Assembly: GCF_003044035.1 (NCBI RefSeq)
Contig: NZ_NVQC01000013.1
Location: 121,078 to 153,077 of the forward strand
Length of the DNA stretch: 32,000 nucleotides
Reading direction: 5' to 3'
DNA from: Candidatus Methylomirabilis limnetica
GTDB taxonomy: Bacteria > Methylomirabilota > Methylomirabilia > Methylomirabilales > Methylomirabilaceae
Shown piece by piece: positions 10,420-32,000 of the stretch. How positions within the stretch are numbered: the first letter of the stretch is position 1; every line of letters starts with the position of its first letter. The position numbers were made by a program, and so were the translations under genes. The notes under the pieces are model-generated. The model had not been told where the DNA came from. It did no database searches and saw nothing but the letters and a program-made list of their open reading frames with translations.

Positions 10420-10816
10420 TCACTTCCGCATACGGCGTTGTCTCTACCATCTGGTTCTCCCCATGAGGCTAACAGATATTAGCCGACAGTTCTTAGGCGG
10501 ACTCTACGATATTGGTGTGTGCAATGCAACACGATACTCGTGACACACTCCTTGGAACACTCTTGAACAAAACGCTTGCACGGGAACCCACTGTTGGATA
10601 GCCTGTTCGTCAGCTAGGGATGATACCCAATGCCTCAGGTGTGGACCCGTCGCCCCCTTGCCCCAGATTCCCGGTGGCCAGCAGGGTACTTGCAGGTGGC
10701 CATAGACTCTTTTCTCCAGGCGCTGACAAACGATTCGGTGGTTGCTGTGGTAGAGGCCGACCGGTTGCTCGGTGGGGCCGTCAGGTGTTGGCCATAGCAA
10801 CGGAGGTGAGAGACTG
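10410..10816 (-). repeat. conserved non-coding element, copy A (core 10469-10658, plus flanks shared with copy C)
   Basis: Aligns by eye with 14345-14533 and 15331-15520. The flanks 10410-10468 and 10659-10816 align only with copy C. Strand assignment is tentative. Confidence 0.8.
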
Positions 10817-11299
10817 ATGCGGCGAGCGTTGACCATCGCGGGCTCCGATTCCGGCGGTGGAGCGGGGATCCATGCCGATCTGAAAACGTTCACAGCCCTT
10901 GGTGTGTTCGGGACATCGGCGATTACGTCGGTTACGGCCCAGAACACGATCGGCGTCCATGGGGTGCACGATCTGCCGCCGGAGTTCGTAGGGGGCGCCA
11001 GATCGACTCGGTCCTTGACGATATCGCCATCGACGTGGCCAAGACCGGGATGCTTTCGAGCGCAGCGATCATCGAGGTGGTCACGGCGAAGGTGAAGGCG
11101 CATGCGATCCAGCGGTTGGTAGTCGATCCGGTGATGGTGGCCAAGAATGGGGCGCCGTTACTTCGGTCTGATGCCGTGAACGCGCTCATTGAGCGTCTGC
11201 TGCCCCTTGCCCTTGTTCTCACGCCGAATGTGCCGGAGGCTGAGGCGCTCACAGGGCTGACGATCACTGAGCTCAATGGGATGCGTCAGGCGGCGCGGC
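10817..11299 (+). pseudogene. thiD: 5' fragment of a thiD paralogue, frameshifted and truncated
   Basis: Colinear with thiD 15904-16384. Two extra G in the G-run 10991-10995 shift the frame, so the ORF track splits into 10772..11095 and 11035..11316. Homology ends at 11299. Confidence 0.85.
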
Positions 11300-11329
11300 C
11301 TACAACAGGCGGATAGAAAGGTGGAAGAC

Positions 11330-12760
11330 ATGAATGTGCGTTCAATCCTGACAATTGTAGCCACGCTCGCGCTGGCGTTACCGGCACAGGCGGACGATGA
11401 AGGCGTCGCGCTGACGATCTACAATCAGAGCTTCGGGGTCGTGCGCGAGAAACGAGGCGTCGAGATCAAGGACAAGCTTGGCGTGGTCCGGTTCACGAAC
11501 GTGGCGGCGCAGATTGACGGCACGAGCGTGCAATTCAAATCGCTCACCGATCCCGCCGCGCGTGTGCTGGAGCAGAACTACGAGTATGACCTCGTCTCCG
11601 CGGACAAGCTCCTGCACAAATACATCGACAAACAGATCGCGGTGCTCACCAAGGACGGCTCGCGCTATTCCGGCAACCTGATGAGCTTCGACGCGAACCA
11701 ACTCGTCATCCGGCAGTACGGGGAGAAGGGCGAGATCGTGATGGTGCAGCGCGGCGACAACGTCAAAGACATCCAGTTTGGCGCGTTACCGGAAGGATTG
11801 ATTGCGAAGCCGACGCTGGTGTGGAAGCTCGCGACAGAGAAACCAGGCACGCATCTCGTCGAGGTCGCCTATCAGACCGGCGGCTTGAACTGGCAGGCCT
11901 CTTACAACGCCGTGCTCAACGCCAAGGATACCGGGCTGGACCTCGGCGGCTGGGTGACAATCAACAACACGTCCGGCGCGACCTATAAGGACGCGAGGCT
12001 CAAACTTATTGCCGGAGACGTGCGCCGGGTCCAGCCGCCGTCTCGCGCATACGCCATAAAAGGCGCGATGGCGATGGAAGCGGCCGCAGCGCCACAATTC
12101 GAGGAAAAAGCGTTCTTCGAGTATCACCTGTACACGCTGCAACGGCCCAGCACGGTCGCCGACAACCAAACGAAGCAGATCGAATTGCTTAAGGCGGCGG
12201 ACGTACCGGTCAAGAAGGTGTTGCTCTACGAGGGCGCGCCGCAATTCCGGTTCTACGGTGGACTGCACACGTCGGCGGAGTATGGCAGCCAGGAGTTCAA
12301 CAAGAAGGTCAACATCATCATCGAGGTCAAGAACTCGAAGGACAATCACATGGGCATGGCACTGCCGAAGGGCAAGGTGCGACTCTACAAACGCGACGAG
12401 GCCGATGCGGCGCTGGAATTCATCGGCGAAGACGAGATTGATCACACGCCGAAGGACGAGACGATCAAGCTGCACATCGGCGACGCGTTCGACGTCGTCG
12501 GCGAACGCAAGCGCACCGATTTCCGCGTGGACAGCGGCCGGCACGTCATGACCGAGAGCTTCGAGATTCGCATTCGCAACCACAAAGACGAACCCGTGGA
12601 CGTGCTCGTCAAAGAGACGCTCTATCGCGGGAACAACTGGGAGATCACCGCGTCGAGCCACAAGTGGACCAAATTCGACTCCGGCACCATCCACTTCCCG
12701 ATCACCGTAGCCAAAGACGGCGAGCGGGTCGTGACGTACACGGTGAGATATACGTGGTGA
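11330..12760 (+). CDS. secreted DUF4140/DUF4139-type (MuiA-like) protein
   Basis: Signal peptide MNVRSILTIVATLALALPAQA, then ALTIYNQSFGVVREKR...FTNVAAQIDGTSVQ and a beta-rich C-terminal region. GGTGGAAG lies before the ATG at 11330. Confidence 0.6.
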   Translation: MNVRSILTIVATLALALPAQADDEGVALTIYNQSFGVVREKRGVEIKDKLGVVRFTNVAAQIDGTSVQFKSLTDPAARVLEQNYEYDLVSADKLLHKYIDKQIAVLTKDGSRYSGNLMSFDANQLVIRQYGEKGEIVMVQRGDNVKDIQFGALPEGLIAKPTLVWKLATEKPGTHLVEVAYQTGGLNWQASYNAVLNAKDTGLDLGGWVTINNTSGATYKDARLKLIAGDVRRVQPPSRAYAIKGAMAMEAAAAPQFEEKAFFEYHLYTLQRPSTVADNQTKQIELLKAADVPVKKVLLYEGAPQFRFYGGLHTSAEYGSQEFNKKVNIIIEVKNSKDNHMGMALPKGKVRLYKRDEADAALEFIGEDEIDHTPKDETIKLHIGDAFDVVGERKRTDFRVDSGRHVMTESFEIRIRNHKDEPVDVLVKETLYRGNNWEITASSHKWTKFDSGTIHFPITVAKDGERVVTYTVRYTW

Positions 12761-12983
12761 TGTCTGAGGCGTTGAAGCTTTTAGCCGAGTGAAGCGAGTC
12801 GCCGCTCACCCAAGGCGGTCTGGCAAGACTGGTGAAGTCCAGCCAGTCCAGGGTCGCCAAGATGGAAGCCGACGATCCCTCGGTGTCTTGGACCTGCTCA
12901 TTAGAACCCTTCTGGCGCTGGGAGCCTCGAGTCGCGAGATAGCGAGAACCTTCGCGCCCTCTCGTCGCGCCACGGCGGCCTAA
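12760..12983 (+). pseudogene. decayed XRE-family HTH (antitoxin-like) gene
   Basis: MSEALKLLAE-TGA-SESPLTQGGLARLVKSSQSRVAKMEADDPSVS, then a -1 shift into LDLLIRTLLALGASSREIA...*. It carries one in-frame stop and one frameshift. Confidence 0.55.
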
Positions 12984-13053
12984 CGCTCCGCTTCATCTGC
13001 GGGCGCTCACGCCTCATCAATGGCGAGCCGTCAACTGCAAGCGGTAGTTAGGT
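12978..13053. mobile_element. attC-like hairpin site R (76 bp)
   Basis: The plus strand reads GCCTAAC ... GTTAGGT and the minus strand ACCTAAC ... GTTAGGC, so RYYYAAC / GTTRRRY appear on both strands. The interior is an imperfect palindrome (CCGCTT/AAGCGG, CGCC/GGCG, GCT/AGC with bulges). Confidence 0.5.
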
Positions 13054-13057
13054 CTTT

Positions 13058-13384
13058 TCACGAAAACAGTTCCGCCAAAGTCGAGAAAACCGCCGACTGT
13101 GTTTGCGGCCCAACTTTCCCCAATCTTTTCACCAATCTTGATTTGTCGACAGTTCGAATCTGGTCGAGAACAATCTGGGCTTGCTTGCCTTGGGAAACAC
13201 AAGAAACCCGAGAGGGATAATCTCGCCCCTTCGTGGTCATTGGGGCAACTATGACTGTGGCAATGAAACGGTTTAATTCGTCCGGCGAGATGATCAGACA
13301 GGGGCGACTCTTCTTGATCTCGCTTCCAACAGTAGGGTCCAGGTTTACCAGATAGACTTCAAACCGTTTCACTTCCATTCCCAT
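13058..13384 (-). CDS. mazF: type II toxin, MazF/PemK-family endoribonuclease
   Basis: 108 aa with VYLVNLDPTVGSEIKKSRPCLIISPD...VIVAPMTT...VLDQIRTVDKSRL. Confidence 0.85.
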   Translation of the reverse strand: MGMEVKRFEVYLVNLDPTVGSEIKKSRPCLIISPDELNRFIATVIVAPMTTKGRDYPSRVSCVSQGKQAQIVLDQIRTVDKSRLVKRLGKVGPQTQSAVFSTLAELFS

Positions 13385-13626
13385 TCTTCCTTATCCCAGG
13401 AAGTCTGGCTAGCCGCATCCGCATCCAACAACTTGTCATCGCCCCTTGCCGCCATGGCCCGGAACTTTTCCGCCCAGCCTTCGCGCGGCTTTTTCACTGA
13501 GCGAATGATAATCTGGCGGTCCCCAACCTGAAGCTCAACCTCGCCACTCAGATGGGTCTGCTCCAACACCACTTTGGGGATTCTAATGCCTTGGGAATTA
13601 CCGATGCGAACGATGCTTGCCTTCAT
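13369..13626 (-). CDS. mazE: type II antitoxin, AbrB/MazE/SpoVT-family
   Basis: 85 aa with IVRIGNSQGIRIPK swapped-hairpin motif. Overlaps mazF by 16 nt. GGAGGTGG RBS. Confidence 0.8.
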   Translation of the reverse strand: MKASIVRIGNSQGIRIPKVVLEQTHLSGEVELQVGDRQIIIRSVKKPREGWAEKFRAMAARGDDKLLDADAASQTSWDKEEWEWK

Positions 13627-13656
13627 CGAATACCACCTCCAACCAACCTTGATATA

Positions 13657-13690
13657 ATTACAATGTAATCACATCGTACTCTTTCGTCAA
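13657..13690 (-). promoter_or_regulatory. putative mazEF promoter with palindromic operator
   Basis: Minus strand: TTGACG (13690-13685), 17 nt, then TACATT. A perfect palindrome ATTACAtTGTAAT (13657-13669) overlaps the -10 region. Confidence 0.4.
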
Positions 13691-13701
13691 TAGTGAAATA
13701 G

Positions 13702-13768
13702 GCCCAACGTTCACGTCAACCGGCGCGCGCCGCTCTTGCGCGCGTCCGTGTTGGGCGTGCTGTTAGGG
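13702..13768 (-). mobile_element. attC-like hairpin site Q (67 bp)
   Basis: Minus strand: CCCTAAC-ag-CACGCCCAACA-CGGaCGCGCGC-aagagcg-GCGCGCGCCG-GTTGACGTG-aac-GTTGGGC. Homologous in architecture to the site at 31522-31587. Confidence 0.6.
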
Positions 13769-14334
13769 TGCCCTCGCTGCTCAGTGGGCTTGCCGACAAT
13801 TGAAGGCGTCGACGCAAAGTCCCAGTTGTCTTCATACACCGAAGCCAGCGGTGCAGGGACGGCGATCGGGCGATCATTGGGAAGACCGATGCGAAATAGA
13901 CGCCGGTCGCTGGTGCGGTGCGCCGGGTTGTCTTTGAGCCATAGTTGATGCTCGTCTCGCACGTATTTGGCAACGACGACACTCGGGACGATAAAAAATC
14001 GCAACGCGTACTTCGACAACTCAGTCCGGCTCGAATTGATGTGCACGAAGCAGTAGAACAGGTTCGGGTCAATGACGCCTTCGTGCTTGGCGCTCATCTG
14101 CCAATCGGTAACGAATGTTTCAAAGAGCCTTGAATCACTGTCGCGGGTGCGAGTCTCGAGGTTTGTCTTAACCTCGACTTCGTAACGTGCGCCCCTGCGG
14201 GGGTCGAGCACCAGGATGTCGATGTTCTTCGTATGACCCAGAGTCATGCCTGCGTCGTAGCCCCGCAGTGTCAATTGCGATAGGACGGCAAATTCTCCCG
14301 CGAGCCCTACTGAATTGGGTGGAATTCGCGCCAT
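13711..14334 (-). CDS. PD-(D/E)xK nuclease-like hypothetical protein
   Basis: The N-terminus GLAGEFAVLSQLTLRGYDA...NIDILVLD...YEVEVKT matches the G..GE / D / E-x-K layout of Hjc/YraN-type nucleases. No family was recognised for the C-terminal half. Confidence 0.55.
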   Translation of the reverse strand: MARIPPNSVGLAGEFAVLSQLTLRGYDAGMTLGHTKNIDILVLDPRRGARYEVEVKTNLETRTRDSDSRLFETFVTDWQMSAKHEGVIDPNLFYCFVHINSSRTELSKYALRFFIVPSVVVAKYVRDEHQLWLKDNPAHRTSDRRLFRIGLPNDRPIAVPAPLASVYEDNWDFASTPSIVGKPTEQRGHPNSTPNTDARKSGARRLT

Positions 14335-14344
14335 ATTGAGTGCC

Positions 14345-14540
14345 CTAACAGATATTAGCCGACACTTCTTGGACGGGCTTTACGATATTGGTGCGTGCTA
14401 TACCAACACGATACTCGTGACACACCCCTTGGAACATCCTTGAACAAAACGCTTGCACAGGAACCCCCTGTTGGATAGCCTGGTCGTCAGATATGGATGA
14501 TACCCAACACCTCAGGCGTGGACCTGTTGCCCCCTCCAAC
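14345..14540 (-). repeat. conserved non-coding element, copy B (core only)
   Basis: 14345-14533 aligns with 10469-10658 and 15331-15520. On the minus strand it is bounded by GTTGGAG (14540-14534) and GTTAGGG (14349-14343). Confidence 0.8.
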
Positions 14541-14546
14541 GCGGTG

Positions 14547-14909
14547 TTAGCCCACCTCGTCATTGGGGGCGACGCAAGGCATGAGCGACATGCACTCGCG
14601 CTGAAGCACCGATACATCGTGTTCGACGATCGCCCACACGACAGCGTCATCCACGGTCGGGTACTCGTGGGTAAGCTGGTTGCGGAAGTCCACGATCCTC
14701 CGTGCCCGCGTGATTGCATCGAAGGCATCCGGTGCGACTCGGCCGAGTGCCGCGGCCGCCTCTCCGATGATGATGAACTCGCGCTCGACCGAAGAGCGGA
14801 CGAGGCGATTGCTTTCATACCCGGCGAGATTAAGGTCTCGAACCGCGACGGTGATCGCGTCGCACGACTCGATGATGTCGGCCAAGTAGGCACGCGCATC
14901 ACGCGGCAT
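14547..14909 (-). CDS. hepT: HepT (DUF86) toxin of a HepT/MNT module
   Basis: 120 aa with the Rx4HxY motif RNQLTHEY. Overlaps the upstream MNT gene by 11 nt. Confidence 0.85.
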   Translation of the reverse strand: MPRDARAYLADIIESCDAITVAVRDLNLAGYESNRLVRSSVEREFIIIGEAAAALGRVAPDAFDAITRARRIVDFRNQLTHEYPTVDDAVVWAIVEHDVSVLQRECMSLMPCVAPNDEVG

Positions 14910-15207
14910 AAAGCATCTGCCTCGTACGCTCGATGTCGCGGGCGATGTACGGGTTTTTGATGGCCCCCACCATGACCAAGTCGATCTTCAGGCCTAATAC
15001 GGTCCGGAGTTCTTCCAGCATGCCGAAGTAGGCCTCGACTCGAGCGTACGGCTCCATCGGCCCGAACTCGACCAACAGGTCCAGGTCGCTCTCATCCGGT
15101 TTGAAGTCATCATGCAAAGCCGAACCGAACGCGTACAGCCGTACCACACCATGGCGCACGCAGGCCGCAGCTATCGCTTGGCGATTGTTCTCGAGAACAC
15201 CGATCAT
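14899..15207 (-). CDS. mntA: MNT-family nucleotidyltransferase antitoxin
   Basis: 102 aa with LYAFGSALHDDFKPDESDLDLLVEF (the GS...D.D nucleotidyltransferase motif). Confidence 0.85.
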   Translation of the reverse strand: MIGVLENNRQAIAAACVRHGVVRLYAFGSALHDDFKPDESDLDLLVEFGPMEPYARVEAYFGMLEELRTVLGLKIDLVMVGAIKNPYIARDIERTRQMLYAA

Positions 15208-15268
15208 GACGTGTCTCCCACGTTCATCGTACCTACAGCGGGTGAGGCGCGCACCGGCCAGGAACGAT

Positions 15269-15660
15269 CCGCGCCGAAGTCACTTCAGTGTGCGGCGTTG
15301 TCTCTACCCTCTGGTTCCCCCCCGATGGGGCTAACAGATATTAGCCGACACTCCTTGAATGGACTCTACGATATTGATGCATGTAAGGCAACACGATACT
15401 CATGACGCGCCAATTGGACAACTTTTGAACAAAACGCTTGCACAGGAAGCGACCGTTGGATAGCCTGTTCGTCAGATATTGATGATACCCAACAACTTAA
15501 GCGTGGACCAATCGCCCCCTTTAACCGAGATCCCCGGTGGCCAGCATGGTACTTGTAATTGGCCATGGGGTCTTTTCTTCAGGCGGAGACCAACGATCCG
15601 GCGGTTGCTGTGGCAGAGGTCGACCGGATGCTGGATGGGGCGGGCAGTCTCCGGTGGAGT
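15269..15660 (-). repeat. conserved non-coding element, copy C (core 15331-15520, plus flanks shared with copy A)
   Basis: Aligns with copy A across both flanks and the core. It lies between the mntA start and thiD. Confidence 0.8.
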
Positions 15661-15759: not shown

Positions 15760-15874
15760 GTCATTCTGGGCTTGACAAGCCTGCCCCGTACTTGATACGG
15801 GGGAATCCAGTCTTTCTGTGCTGGATTCCCGCTCCCCGCTTAAGGCATGCGGGGACAAGCTTCGCGGGAATGAC
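15760..15874. repeat. multi-hairpin REP-like element (family 2)
   Basis: Outer arms GTCATTC (15760-15766) and GAATGAC (15868-15874) enclose three hairpins: CCCCGTA/TACGGGG, GGAATCCAG/CTGGATTCC, CCCCGC/GCGGGG. It is absent from the otherwise homologous copy A. Confidence 0.7.
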
Positions 15875-15903
15875 GGCTTCGGTACAACGGAGGTGATAAA
15901 CCG

Positions 15904-16698
15904 ATGCGGACGGCGCTCACGATAGCAGGCTCCGATTCCGGGGGTGGAGCGGGGATCCAGGCTGATCTGAAGACCTTTGCCGCCTTGGGTATCTTCGGGA
16001 CATCGGCGATTACGTCGGTCACTGCCCAGAACACGGTCGGTGTCCAGGGGGTGTACGATCTGCCGCCGGAGTTCGTCGGGCGCCAGATCGACTCGGTCCT
16101 GGAAGATATCCACATCGACGCGGCCAAGACCGGGATGCTTTCGAGCGCAGCGATCATAGAGGTGGTCGCGGAGAAGGTGAAGGCGTATGCGACCATGCGG
16201 CTGGTGGTCGATCCGGTGATGGTGGCCAAGGGTGGGGCGTCGTTACTTCGGCCTGATGCCGTGAAGGCGCTCGTCGAGCGTCTGCTGCCCCTTGCCCTTG
16301 TTCTCACGCCGAATGTGCCGGAGGCTGAGGCGCTCACAGGGCTGACGATCACCGAGCTCAATGGGATGCGTCAGGCGGCGCGGCAGATCCACGGCCTCGG
16401 CCCGAGGTACGTTGTCCTCAAGGGGGGCCACCTTGGCGGTCGCGCGATCGATCTCCTGTTCGACGGAAGTCACTTCACGGAGTTGGATGCCGAGCGGATC
16501 GATACGCCGCACACCCACGGGACCGGATGCGTCTTCTCTGCGGCCATCACCGCGGAGCTGGCCAAGGGCAGTCCGGTTCCAGAGGCAGTTGCCATCGCCA
16601 AGCGCTTCATCACGGCTGCAATCCACTATGGGTTTCGGCTTGGCAAGGGATTCGGTCCGACCGATCCGATGGCGGCCGCAAGGAGCCTCACGCCATAA
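15904..16698 (+). CDS. thiD: hydroxymethylpyrimidine/phosphomethylpyrimidine kinase
   Basis: 264 aa with [21 protein letters not shown]...[11 protein letters not shown]...HTHGTGC. GGAGGTG RBS. Confidence 0.9.
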
Positions 16699-30183: not shown

Positions 30184-30292
30184 CTCTCACTCCACCGCAG
30201 TAACGATCTCCCCACCGACTTTCCTCCATGACCGCTTTTACCATAGCATACGGCCCTTGGACTCCGCTACAGTAGATCACTCCTCATCACCC

Positions 30293-30329
30293 AATCCCCC
30301 CCTTTCAAAAAGGGGGGCGAGGGGGGATT
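30293..30329. repeat. C-run/G-run hairpin repeat (family 1, copy 4)
   Basis: AATCCCCCCCCTTT caa AAAGGGGGG cga GGGGGGATT, with alternative nested pairings. Confidence 0.65.
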
Positions 30330-30367: not shown

Positions 30368-30467
30368 TCACCGCGAGGGAGCGGAGCGACCGAAGCAATC
30401 CCATCGTTCTTCACACCCTCAAGGACATTCAGATTGCCACGCTCCCTTCGGTCGCTCGCAATGACGA
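30368..30467. repeat. REP-like long imperfect hairpin (family 4)
   Basis: GAGCGACCGAAG (30384-30395) pairs with CTTCGGTCGCTC (30446-30457), and CAATC pairs with GATTG. Confidence 0.6.
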
Positions 30468-30839
30468 GCCAGTGAGTGGCATAGTCTGGCTTTAAACTTT
30501 CATACCCAAGAGCGCCCTATATCCACATGGCTGCCAACACACTACGACGATCTATACCCATGTAATGAACCGAAGGGACAAGGGAATCCACAGCCCAGTC
30601 GATAGGCTCGAATTTAGCTAGGGCAGTTCGCTGTGGGAAGGTTGAATAGGCTGACCTGGGTGCAGCGTTTGCCGTCATCAGGATTTATAAGAATGTATTG
30701 CTAACTACGCGATAAGGCTGTACTATTTGCTCTGACCTAAAAACGGTTGGTCTGGATATACTGGTCAGCATACATAATAGTTGGGCAACATGTACCCCAG
30801 TGTTGTCTGACTCTTTAATCAAGGGGAAGGGAGAGCAAT

Positions 30840-30905
30840 ATGTTTTGTCTAAAGTGCGGCAAGGAAAACTCTAACGACGTAAAGTTTTTCGTCTTGACCG
30901 TGTAG
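30840..30905 (+). pseudogene. possible frameshifted zinc-ribbon mini-gene
   Basis: MFCLKCGKENSNDVKFF... (CxxCG knuckle) stops after 21 codons. A second knuckle, CRKICG, is readable in another frame just downstream. GGGAAGGGAG lies upstream. Confidence 0.25.
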
Positions 30906-31002
30906 AAAGATCTGTGGTGTACTTAGCCGTACATCTAATGATTGGTCAGCCGTGGTCCGGCGCTTGGAGTAAAATTTACCCGACATTTCGAGAGGTAGGG
31001 GC

Positions 31003-31224
31003 ATGAAGCAATCGTCGGTTGTGCACTGCGATCCTGATATCCTGGGGGGCACCCCGGTGTTCGTTGGAACGCGCGTTCCTGTTCAGGCGCTGATTGACTA
31101 TATCGAGGGCGGCCACTCCCTTGAAACGTTCCTTGATGACTTCCCAACCGTGAGCCGGGACATCGCGGTGGCTGCTCTCGAGCAGGCGAAAGTGCATTTA
31201 CTCGCCGATGCGCGTGCTGCTTGA
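31003..31224 (+). CDS. DUF433-family protein (putative antitoxin)
   Basis: 73 aa with ...DPDILGGTPVFVGTRVPVQALIDYIEGGHSLETFLDDFP..., the typical DUF433 core. Confidence 0.8.
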   Translation: MKQSSVVHCDPDILGGTPVFVGTRVPVQALIDYIEGGHSLETFLDDFPTVSRDIAVAALEQAKVHLLADARAA

Positions 31225-31510
31225 CGAATGTTTCCCCCGAGCCTTACGCGTGGAGCTTCCTGGCCACGAAATCGCGACGGTCGCTGAAGCCGGGTGGGCT
31301 GGCGTTAAAAATGGCGCGCTCTTGCAACTTGCGGCAGCGCGGTTTGAAGTTCTCTTGACCGTTGATCGCAATCTAGAGTATCAGCAGAACTTTTCCAGTC
31401 TTACGATCGCCGTCATCGTAGTTGACTCCCCAAGCAACGATGTTGAGGTGCTTCTGCCATTGTGCCCAAGGTCCTCGAAGCCTTACCCAAGGCCAAGCCT
31501 GGAGTCGTGA
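31208..31510 (+). CDS. DUF5615-family PIN-like protein (putative toxin), with a likely 3' frameshift
   Basis: MRVLLDECFPRAL...LLTVDRNLEYQQN. Overlaps the DUF433 gene by 17 nt. After about 31455 a different frame gives the family-like tail IVPKVLEALPKAKPGVVTHVHG*, ending at 31527. Confidence 0.7.
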   Translation: MRVLLDECFPRALRVELPGHEIATVAEAGWAGVKNGALLQLAAARFEVLLTVDRNLEYQQNFSSLTIAVIVVDSPSNDVEVLLPLCPRSSKPYPRPSLES

Positions 31511-31521
31511 CGCATGTCCAC

Positions 31522-31587
31522 GGCTAACAGCGCAATCACACCGACGCGCGCAAAAGCGGTGCGCGCGGGTGATTGCGAACGTTGGAC
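31522..31587 (+). mobile_element. attC-like hairpin site P (66 bp)
   Basis: GGCTAAC-ag-CGCAATCACa-CCGaCGCGCGC-aaaagcg-GTGCGCGCGG-GTGATTGCG-aac-GTTGGAC. Same architecture as site Q at 13702-13768. Confidence 0.6.
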
Positions 31588-31903
31588 GACATAACAATGG
31601 ACAAACGTATCTTGTGGGCAGTGTTCTCGGATTACTCGCTTTAATATTTGCGTATTCCTATCAAAGCCGCTACCCATTCTGATCGCAAAGTAGACATCTC
31701 TTCCGATTGAACTCGGCCAGACGTTCCGATGTTGGTGCAGATTTGTGGTTGAAATCTACACCGCGATGCCGAGGGTGACATCCCCGCTTGGAGGTGGAGA
31801 GTCCTTCTGATCAGCGGGAATAGGCTGACCGTTCCTGCAGTGTTTGCCATGTTCCGGATCGTTGGAAATTCCTTGCGGGTGTAAGACAAATTTATGGGTA
31901 ATA

Positions 31904-31955
31904 TTGACTTTTCCCTTTTTTTGGCCTATCATCTGATTGTTAATTGAGCAATCAG
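31904..31955 (+). promoter_or_regulatory. sigma70-type promoter with downstream operator palindrome
   Basis: TTGACT (31904-31909), 17 nt, TATCAT (31927-31932), immediately followed by CTGATTG-ttaattgag-CAATCAG (31933-31955) and then the AAGGAGG RBS. Confidence 0.5.
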
Positions 31956-31968
31956 ATAAGGAGGCCTT

Positions 31969-32000
31969 ATGACAACACCACTTGAACAACTGGAAGAGCG
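31969..32000 (+). CDS. start of an unidentified gene (3' end lies outside the window)
   Basis: ATG at 31969 follows AAGGAGG. Only MTTPLEQLEE is visible. Confidence 0.35.
   Translation, partial: MTTPLEQLEE

Follow-up and report, generated by a model that had tools for sequence, protein, structure and literature searches.

Near the end of a 32,000-nucleotide stretch of DNA (henceforth the window), a hairpin-forming site, P, is very probably the attC site ('59-base element') of an integron gene cassette that occupies positions 30946-31581 and carries a DUF433/DUF5615 toxin-antitoxin-like pair. The attC membership of P, of a second site in the window (Q) and of ~90 relatives rests on anatomy and context: the sites keep their structure through compensated changes, stand in arrays of a single orientation and adjoin genes for integron integrases, and the P cassette recurs in other genomes. 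From these observations we infer recombination of P itself by an integron integrase, at present or in the past. The rest of the window mostly holds core genes (psd, pssA, leuA, asd, truA, thiD and genes for a multicopper oxidase, DsbA, NtrC, glycogen phosphorylase, a hybrid kinase and pyruvate dehydrogenase E1/E2), and this core region is broken by two small accessory islands. Q belongs to an island on the minus strand; the second island, made up of the DUF433/DUF5615 pair and P, follows the pyruvate dehydrogenase operon on the plus strand. P and Q do not mark the ends of one array: each belongs to its own cassette insertion, the two lying 18 kb apart in opposite orientation.

Structure of site P and covariation across its family

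The pattern CTAAC-N30-60-GTTGGRC has two matches in the window, at 31524-31587 on the plus strand and at 13702-13766 on the minus strand, against a chance expectation of 0.08. These matches are P and Q (Table 1), which an earlier note on this DNA had already placed on opposite strands. The same note had ascribed a common architecture to the two sites, and we could read each of its elements directly in both: the CTAAC box, the AG and AAC spacers, the inner stem with its bulged A, the loop AARAGCG and the box GTTGGRC, giving the order YTAAC, stem, bulged A, 3 bp, bulged A, GC stem-loop and GTTGGRC. Q reads CCCTAAC AG CACGCCCAAC A CGG A CGCGCGC AAGAGCG GCGCGCG CCG GTTGACGTG AAC GTTGGGC (13768-13702). 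The outer stems of P and Q differ in sequence, yet each is self-complementary, that of Q (CACGcCCAAC/GTTGaCGTG) with the one C.A mismatch and the one extra base that the note had recorded.

Table 1. Coordinates of site P, its cassette and related features in the window; attC assignments and the crossover point are predictions.
Feature	Position	Strand	Details
attC site P	31522-31587	+	Pattern match, fold, family covariance model
P, inverse core R''	31522-28	+	GGCTAAC, then spacer AG
P, outer stem	31531-39 and 31569-77	+	Left arm CGCAATCAC, right arm GTGATTGCG
P, bulged A's	31540 and 31544	+	CCG between them; T's on the bottom strand
P, apical stem-loop	31545-65	+	CGCGCGC (31545-51), loop AAAAGCG (31552-58), GTGCGCG; then CGG
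P, core R'	31581-87	+	GTTGGAC, preceded by spacer AAC
P, predicted crossover	G31581/T31582		Between the two bases
P gene cassette	30946-31581	+	636 bp; homology limits to copies elsewhere; Pfam
Left junction core	30945-30951	+	GTCAGCC; GTTAGCC or GTTAACT in related copies (GTT to GTC in the window)
DUF433 gene	31003-31224	+	Pfam E 3e-16
DUF5615/PIN_10 gene	31208-31527	+	Frameshifted; 1 nt missing between 31462 and 31463
intI remnant	30517-30621	+	Last ~31 residues plus tail, ending in TTTIYTHVMNRRDKGIHSPVDRLEFS and stop; catalytic-tyrosine motif included
Unit after P	31582-32000	+	ORF starts at 31969 (ATG), ribosome-binding site; cut by window end
attC site Q	13702-13768	-	R'' CCCTAAC (13768-62), R' GTTGGGC (13708-02)
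attC site D	12978-13053	-	Divergent relative, longer apical structure; R'' ACCTAAC, R' GTTAGGC
Cassette between Q and D	13054-13701	-	mazE 13369-13626, mazF/pemK 13058-13384
207-aa ORF upstream of Q	13711-14334	-	No family match; frame runs ~55 nt into Q
Element E copies	15331-15616, 14345-14540 (E2), 10469-10733	-	~85-290 bp, promoter-like hexamers

Canonical attC sites carry extrahelical bases on the R''-L'' arm opposite the bottom-strand AAC (G16, T20 and T23-24) and a central spacer of 5-6 nt (PMC5027507). Compared with the consensus RYYYAAC/GTTRRRY, the P cores fit at six of seven positions (GGCTAAC, with the misfit of R'' at position 2) and at seven of seven (GTTGGAC). The spacer arms of P have the canonical length, with 5 nt (AGCGC) on one side and 6 nt (GCGAAC) on the other. 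Unlike in canonical sites, however, three of the 5-6 spacer positions are able to pair (CGC with GCG), which leaves only AG and AAC unpaired as a 2 x 3 nt internal loop. P has two extrahelical bases, A19 and A23, and they stand at 19 and 23 instead of 20 and 24 because the first of the canonical bases, that at position 16, is missing; a P-type copy in locus L003 retains it. In Q, all three canonical bases are unpaired on the top strand (~15/16, 20 and 24).

As single-stranded DNA, P folds more stably than its shuffles on the top strand (z = -4.3) and on the bottom strand (z = -3.9 to -4.4); the bottom strand of Q reaches z = -3.4, and the two strands of both sites together span -3.4 to -4.4. 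The predicted stability of the P stem is -21 to -25 kcal/mol. A GC-rich stem of such stability directly past stop codons could also act mainly as a transcription terminator or as an mRNA-stabilising 3' stem-loop of toxin-antitoxin operons. We regard this as highly improbable, since the P stem is followed not by a T-run but by AACGTTGGACGACATAAC, a terminator scan of 30400-32000 did not report P, a terminator would have no use for the conserved AAC/GTT boxes or for bulges placed asymmetrically on one arm, and the sites follow many unrelated gene families. A secondary effect of the P hairpin on transcripts is possible alongside its probable role as an attC site.

Relatives of P and Q were collected by scanning 185,579 species-representative genomes, one per species, for exact copies of the apical motif GACGCGCGCAANAGCGGNGCGCGC. 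The scan returned 98 stretches, ~90 of them with a full YTAAC...GTTRRRY frame, six of them chance matches inside genes and a few truncated, with one or two copies per contig. The relatives are mostly metagenome bins, predominantly of Betaproteobacteria/Burkholderiales, with labels that also include Nitrospira, Delta- and Gammaproteobacteria, Acidobacteria, Binatia and Rokubacteria. Rfam, which holds no attC family, gave no match in the window at gathering thresholds, and a literature search for the hairpin motif itself found nothing.

The earlier note had argued that structure is conserved over sequence, and an alignment of 89 members (A2) bears this out. Over the 26-pair structure that we counted, 90.6% of cells are paired; column shuffles reach 76%, and sliding the partners gives 25-47%. 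Double changes occupy 345 cells vs 118 in shuffles, a count reached by none of 500 shuffles, and the covariation score is 0.381 vs 0.123. Changes on both sides occur in 11 of the 12 pairs of the three variable helices, with 91-97% of cells paired. Conservation of AAC and GTT in the cores is 94%, and each of the three inner R-box pairs can form in no fewer than 94% of sequences; the invariance of the apical helix is uninformative because the apical motif was the search key.

The unpaired columns of A2 (17, 21 and 25) correspond to positions 16, 20 and 24 from R'' on the R''-L'' arm, the same arm and positions as G16, T20 and T24 of VCR2 from the Vibrio cholerae chromosomal integron (PMC5027507), an attC site with the same R'' ...AAC / R' GTTRRRY boxes around an imperfect palindrome. 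Two traits set the family apart from canonical attC sites: its position-16 base is no conserved bottom-strand G (and is absent from P), and the P/Q subfamily shares a GC-rich apical stem-loop of 24 nt (GACGCGCGCAARAGCGGYGCGCGC) that is unusually uniform, being identical across ~90 species-level genomes of several phyla. This 24-nt part, which contains the motif used as search key, could carry sequence-specific information while the integrase-binding stems vary.

A2 also served to build a covariance model, with P and Q both in its training set. P reaches 74.6 bits (E 3e-18) on the plus strand against 14 bits on the minus strand; for Q the minus strand is the better one, with 81.9 bits (E 3e-20) against 14 bits on the plus strand. 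The model is thus strand specific (75-82 bits on the gene strand vs 14 bits on the opposite one). It finds one more site in the window, D (28.2 bits, E 2.8e-5), and none besides P, Q and D. Over 100 fetched loci it finds 237 sites, the additional ones measuring 60-95 nt and having variable apical parts.

Cassettes, arrays and integrases around the sites

At 53 of 89 sites, the stop codon of a same-strand ORF lies within 20 nt of R'', upstream of it or inside it, vs 14 of 89 in an opposite-strand control, and at 20 of these 53 ORF-adjacent sites the stop is the TAA inside R''. The earlier note had named a stop codon inside the inverse core as a common cassette trait, and had held that copies never adjacent to the 3' ends of accessory genes would speak against its reading; the counts agree with it. 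The sampled upstream genes belong to diverse families (HNH nuclease, HTH/MqsA-like, HicB, Phd/YefM, PemK, GNAT, ankyrin and alpha/beta hydrolase). Among the best 150 of the model's matches, none of the 33 multi-site loci mixes strands, and the median distance between sites is 718 bp.

Tyrosine recombinase genes occur near family sites in ten loci. Full-length integron integrases are encoded in L082, L069, L098 and L052, at 1.5-3.7 kb from a family site and with scores of 443-490 bits against TIGR02249, whose integron-integrase cutoff is 265 bits; L047, L076, L083 and L073 hold decayed or cut intI copies. Seven of these eight loci show the classic layout, with intI divergent from the array. The exception is L052, where intI and array point the same way in the order intI, 215 bp, GTTAGGC, a cassette with a classic attC and a cassette with a P/Q-type attC. 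A survey of ~2,480 complete genomes counted 215 IntI (PMC4889954); assuming genomes of ~4 Mb, we estimate that about 1 in 5,000 random 8-kb stretches would hold an integrase.

This context bears on a reading of P and Q as REP- or MITE-like extragenic palindromes that are independent of integrons and end in AAC and GTT by chance. Such palindromes would likewise be GC-rich, imperfect and intergenic, and further palindromic repeats are present in the window, those at 15760-15900 and 30286-30328 among them. We nevertheless consider this reading very improbable: there are only two copies per 32 kb, and the exact motif occurs once or twice per contig in ~90 genomes; the sites have a fixed orientation to the upstream gene and keep to one strand per array; integron integrases adjoin them in at least eight loci; their unpaired bases occupy canonical attC positions; and the site travels with its gene as a unit bounded by G/TT.

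The sites might instead be substrates of another recombinase. A candidate is a 291-aa tyrosine recombinase that 2 of ~98 loci (L003 and L034, 80% identical) encode together with an IS91-family transposase, a few kb at most from a family site. Such a role is extremely improbable, since the two loci stand against at least eight with integron integrases, an assembly gap of N's separates the recombinase from the cassette in L003, and the pair is more simply explained as an insertion sequence that landed in cassette arrays. We also rejected the L003 recombinase as a cognate integrase. It is no integron integrase because its score of 189.7 bits is below the cutoff of 265, its match comes in two pieces and its 291 residues face 315 model positions; moreover, it adjoins the IS91 transposase across the gap. 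The recombinase/transposase pair (L003 564-2601 and L034 1725-2597) occurs in unrelated bins and may prefer cassette arrays.

The integron cassette that ends in P follows the description of the earlier note in placing P directly after a DUF433/DUF5615 pair, for which Pfam matches lie at 31003-31224 and from 31208. In the second gene, the window has GCCATTG-TGCCC where four related copies have GCCATTGATGCCC. Restoring the missing base yields a 106-aa protein whose frame ends ...CAC GGC TAA C, as the note had proposed, with the TAA (31525-27) inside R''. An independent assembly of the same organism is identical, including the deletion, which is therefore no one-off read error.

The same DUF433-DUF5615 cassette, at 89-98% DNA identity, lies between unrelated flanks in at least three other genomic contexts. 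The earlier note had asked whether relatives carry different genes between pairs of these sites, and on this point, too, the outcome favours its integron reading. The exact DUF433 protein is encoded in the window, in L001, L002, L004, L005 and L006, where it belongs to an array of small toxin-antitoxin genes flanked by a LysE gene and an ABC transporter, and on the L003 scaffold with the IS91 element. A diverged copy, whose DUF433 protein is not identical, was recovered by the apical-motif scan in L037, a bin labelled Bordetella. DNA identity to the window cassette is 95.6-95.9% in the L001 group, 98.1% in L003 and 88.8% in L037. On the left, homology starts at 30945/30946, at G/T(T/C)AGCC. 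On the right, copies with another attC lose homology at 31528 and those with a P-type attC at 31577-31583. L037 has the P-type site as far as AACG/TT and diverges from there on; L003 diverges ~4 nt earlier, in the spacer before G/TT. As judged by these homology limits, the cassette is mobile across genomes, with gene and attC moving as a unit bounded by G/TT. The L001-type copies (L001 10515-10600) diverge right after CTAAC and have a different, truncated attC; its left stem, CACGTCAAC, is the exact complement of the Q right stem, and the site resembles a swapped attC or a hybrid one at the end of an array.

Upstream of the P cassette lies a remnant of an integron integrase gene. In tblastn searches with the IntI proteins of L082, L098, L069 and L052, the only match in the window is 30517-30609 on the plus strand (48-61% identity, E 1e-6 to 5e-5). 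The translation reads TTTIYTHVMNRRDKGIHSPVDRL, then EFS and a stop (~34 codons), and of 18,950 NCBIfam models only integron-integrase models match it, TIGR02249 over its positions 288-315 of 315 (E 4.8e-6). The 32-kb window contains no intact intI and no IntI match other than this remnant. The integron reading of the earlier note thus gains both from this remnant and from the bona fide integrases that adjoin the family. The remnant is co-oriented with the P cassette and its stop lies 324 bp upstream, the same layout as in the complete integron of L052; as only the last ~34 codons survive, this can be taken only as the putative original layout.

P itself is structurally intact. Its locus, by contrast, appears to be a decaying integron, with intI truncated, GTT changed to GTC in the left core and the PIN-like gene frameshifted. 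The unit after P has a promoter-like TTGACT-17-TATCAT (31904-31932) and a palindrome, CTGATTG-N9-CAATCAG (31933-31955), ahead of its ORF, a layout that would be typical of an autoregulated antitoxin gene. Given this promoter-like site, the operator-like palindrome and the cut ORF, the array may continue past the window; the only syntenic contig stops at ~31794 in window coordinates, and two look-ups by exact protein yielded no match that would extend the sequence.

Separate from these features, palindromic repeats occupy 15760-15900 and 30286-30328, between thiD and E1 and just upstream of the intI remnant. One of them reads GTCATTCCCGCGAAGC...GGGAATCCAG, another is a poly-C/poly-G hairpin, and the part at 15760-15812 is shared at 90% with L117 (1512-1564). 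These repeats may be traces of the events in which the integrase gene was lost.

The minus-strand island and element E

On the minus strand the order is a nucleotidyltransferase/HEPN pair, the 207-aa ORF, Q, mazE-mazF and D. The ORF stops at a TGA in the right stem of Q, so its C-terminus is encoded by the attC; from a reading of its residues, a D...EVK motif seems to resemble that of PD-(D/E)XK nucleases. The cassette between Q and D matches PemK_toxin (1.2e-29) and MazE_antitoxin (2e-7) in Pfam. D starts 4 nt past the mazF stop and has a fold z of -2.4. Q and D share the strand, are 715 bp apart and have no IntI match within 15 kb by tblastn. The published definition of a CALIN asks for two or more attC sites within 4 kb and for the absence of a nearby integrase (PMC4889954); by this definition Q and D form a two-site cassette cluster without integrase that carries the 207-aa ORF and mazEF. 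Their array is also present in strain-level relatives.

A further repeated element, E, has three copies in the window, and it occurs on five metagenome contigs (L115-L119). Every copy ends in AGTGTCGGCTAATATCTGTTAG, that is GGCTAA-TATCTG-TTAG, an inverted GGCTAA/TTAGCC pair at 6-nt spacing, and homology between copies usually stops right after GTTAG. In four unrelated contexts, L116, L117, L119 and E2 of the window, E is directly followed by a different gene each time and then by attC sites on the same strand. No integrase gene lies near E in the 2-4 kb available of those contigs, and E has no similarity to the attI regions of L082, L069, L098 and L047. The terminal inverted core-like boxes of E presumably resemble the 'simple site' of attI. 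The left junction of the P cassette (ATCTAAT GATTG GTCAGCC, 30930-30951) and the end of E (GGCTAAT ATCT GTTAGCC) have CTAAT-N4-5-GTYAGCC in common, a layout which we take to recall the inverted boxes of the attI simple site, as in attI1. The segments 30640-30700 and 31815-31880 were compared with E and their similarity is too weak to count (54% mean column identity over the whole four-sequence alignment).

E may serve as a platform like attI, as a favoured secondary site of insertion or as a mobile promoter. It seems unlikely, if conceivable, that the Q array was nucleated by promoter-like E instead of by an integrase-linked attI. Should E be a portable platform that combines attI and promoter, or a favoured secondary insertion site, it would partly account for the origin and the expression of clusters without integrase.

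Three candidate attC sites in and around E were rejected. Sites B (14502-14552) and A (~15485-15540) have fold z-scores of -1.3 and -0.2, and the family model finds neither; they are not attC, because their right halves belong to E, which is found elsewhere without an upstream cassette. E2 taken as one 208-nt attC (14345-14552) has a fold z of -1.1 and no pairing beside its end boxes.

The 5' part of thiD is duplicated together with E (10795-11299 vs 15884-16400), and the duplicates bracket an island at 10469-15331 with a DUF4139 gene and the cassettes; in the related contig L115, thiD adjoins E. These duplicates around the island and the layout of L115 suggest that the island arose by rearrangement between E copies.

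Site P among known integron systems

If P works as established for attC sites, its bottom strand would be extruded as a hairpin (PMC5027507), and integron integrase dimers would bind the paired R''/R' and L''/L' boxes. Extrahelical bases select the strand in attC sites (PMC5027507), a role that would fall to the two bottom-strand T's in P. Cleavage and exchange would take place between A and C of the bottom-strand AAC, which corresponds to G/TT on the top strand at 31581/31582. Recombination with a neighbouring attC would then excise the cassette as a circle, and recombination with attI would insert it. The P cassette could presumably be mobilised only by an integrase supplied in trans.

Like attC sites at large, members of the P/Q family stand just past a cassette ORF, often with the stop in R'', are bounded by G/TT and belong to co-oriented arrays associated with IntI. 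The Q-D array resembles CALIN (Cury et al. 2016, PMC4889954) in being co-oriented and integrase-less and in carrying toxin-antitoxin and unknown genes instead of resistance genes, but it is very small, with two solid sites, and is preceded by the repeated element E and not by another attC. The intI remnant and the P cassette share a strand across the 324-bp gap, as in integrons with an 'inverted integrase', for example in Treponema (PMC4889954), although the P locus keeps only the last ~34 intI codons. The cassettes of the window are type II toxin-antitoxin-like (DUF433/DUF5615-PIN and MazEF), as are toxin-antitoxin cassettes of sedentary chromosomal integrons (PMC13108822), and the promoter-like site and operator-like palindrome of the unit after P add to this likeness. 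The frameshift in the PIN-like gene of the P cassette and the tiny size of the arrays in the window set them apart from sedentary chromosomal integrons.

The attC sites, integrase-less clusters, adjacent intI pseudogenes and co-oriented integrases have all been described (PMC4889954), and nothing here changes what is known of integrons; P is an ordinary case of a well-known element. The alignment and covariance model yielded ~140 further attC sites in the fetched loci and could be used for mining cassettes in soil and groundwater metagenome bins. For the organism, two accessory islands in a core chromosomal region, and the toxin-antitoxin pairs that they hold, are explained as integron-derived insertions, and copies of one cassette, 89-98% identical in DNA, have passed between different uncultured lineages.
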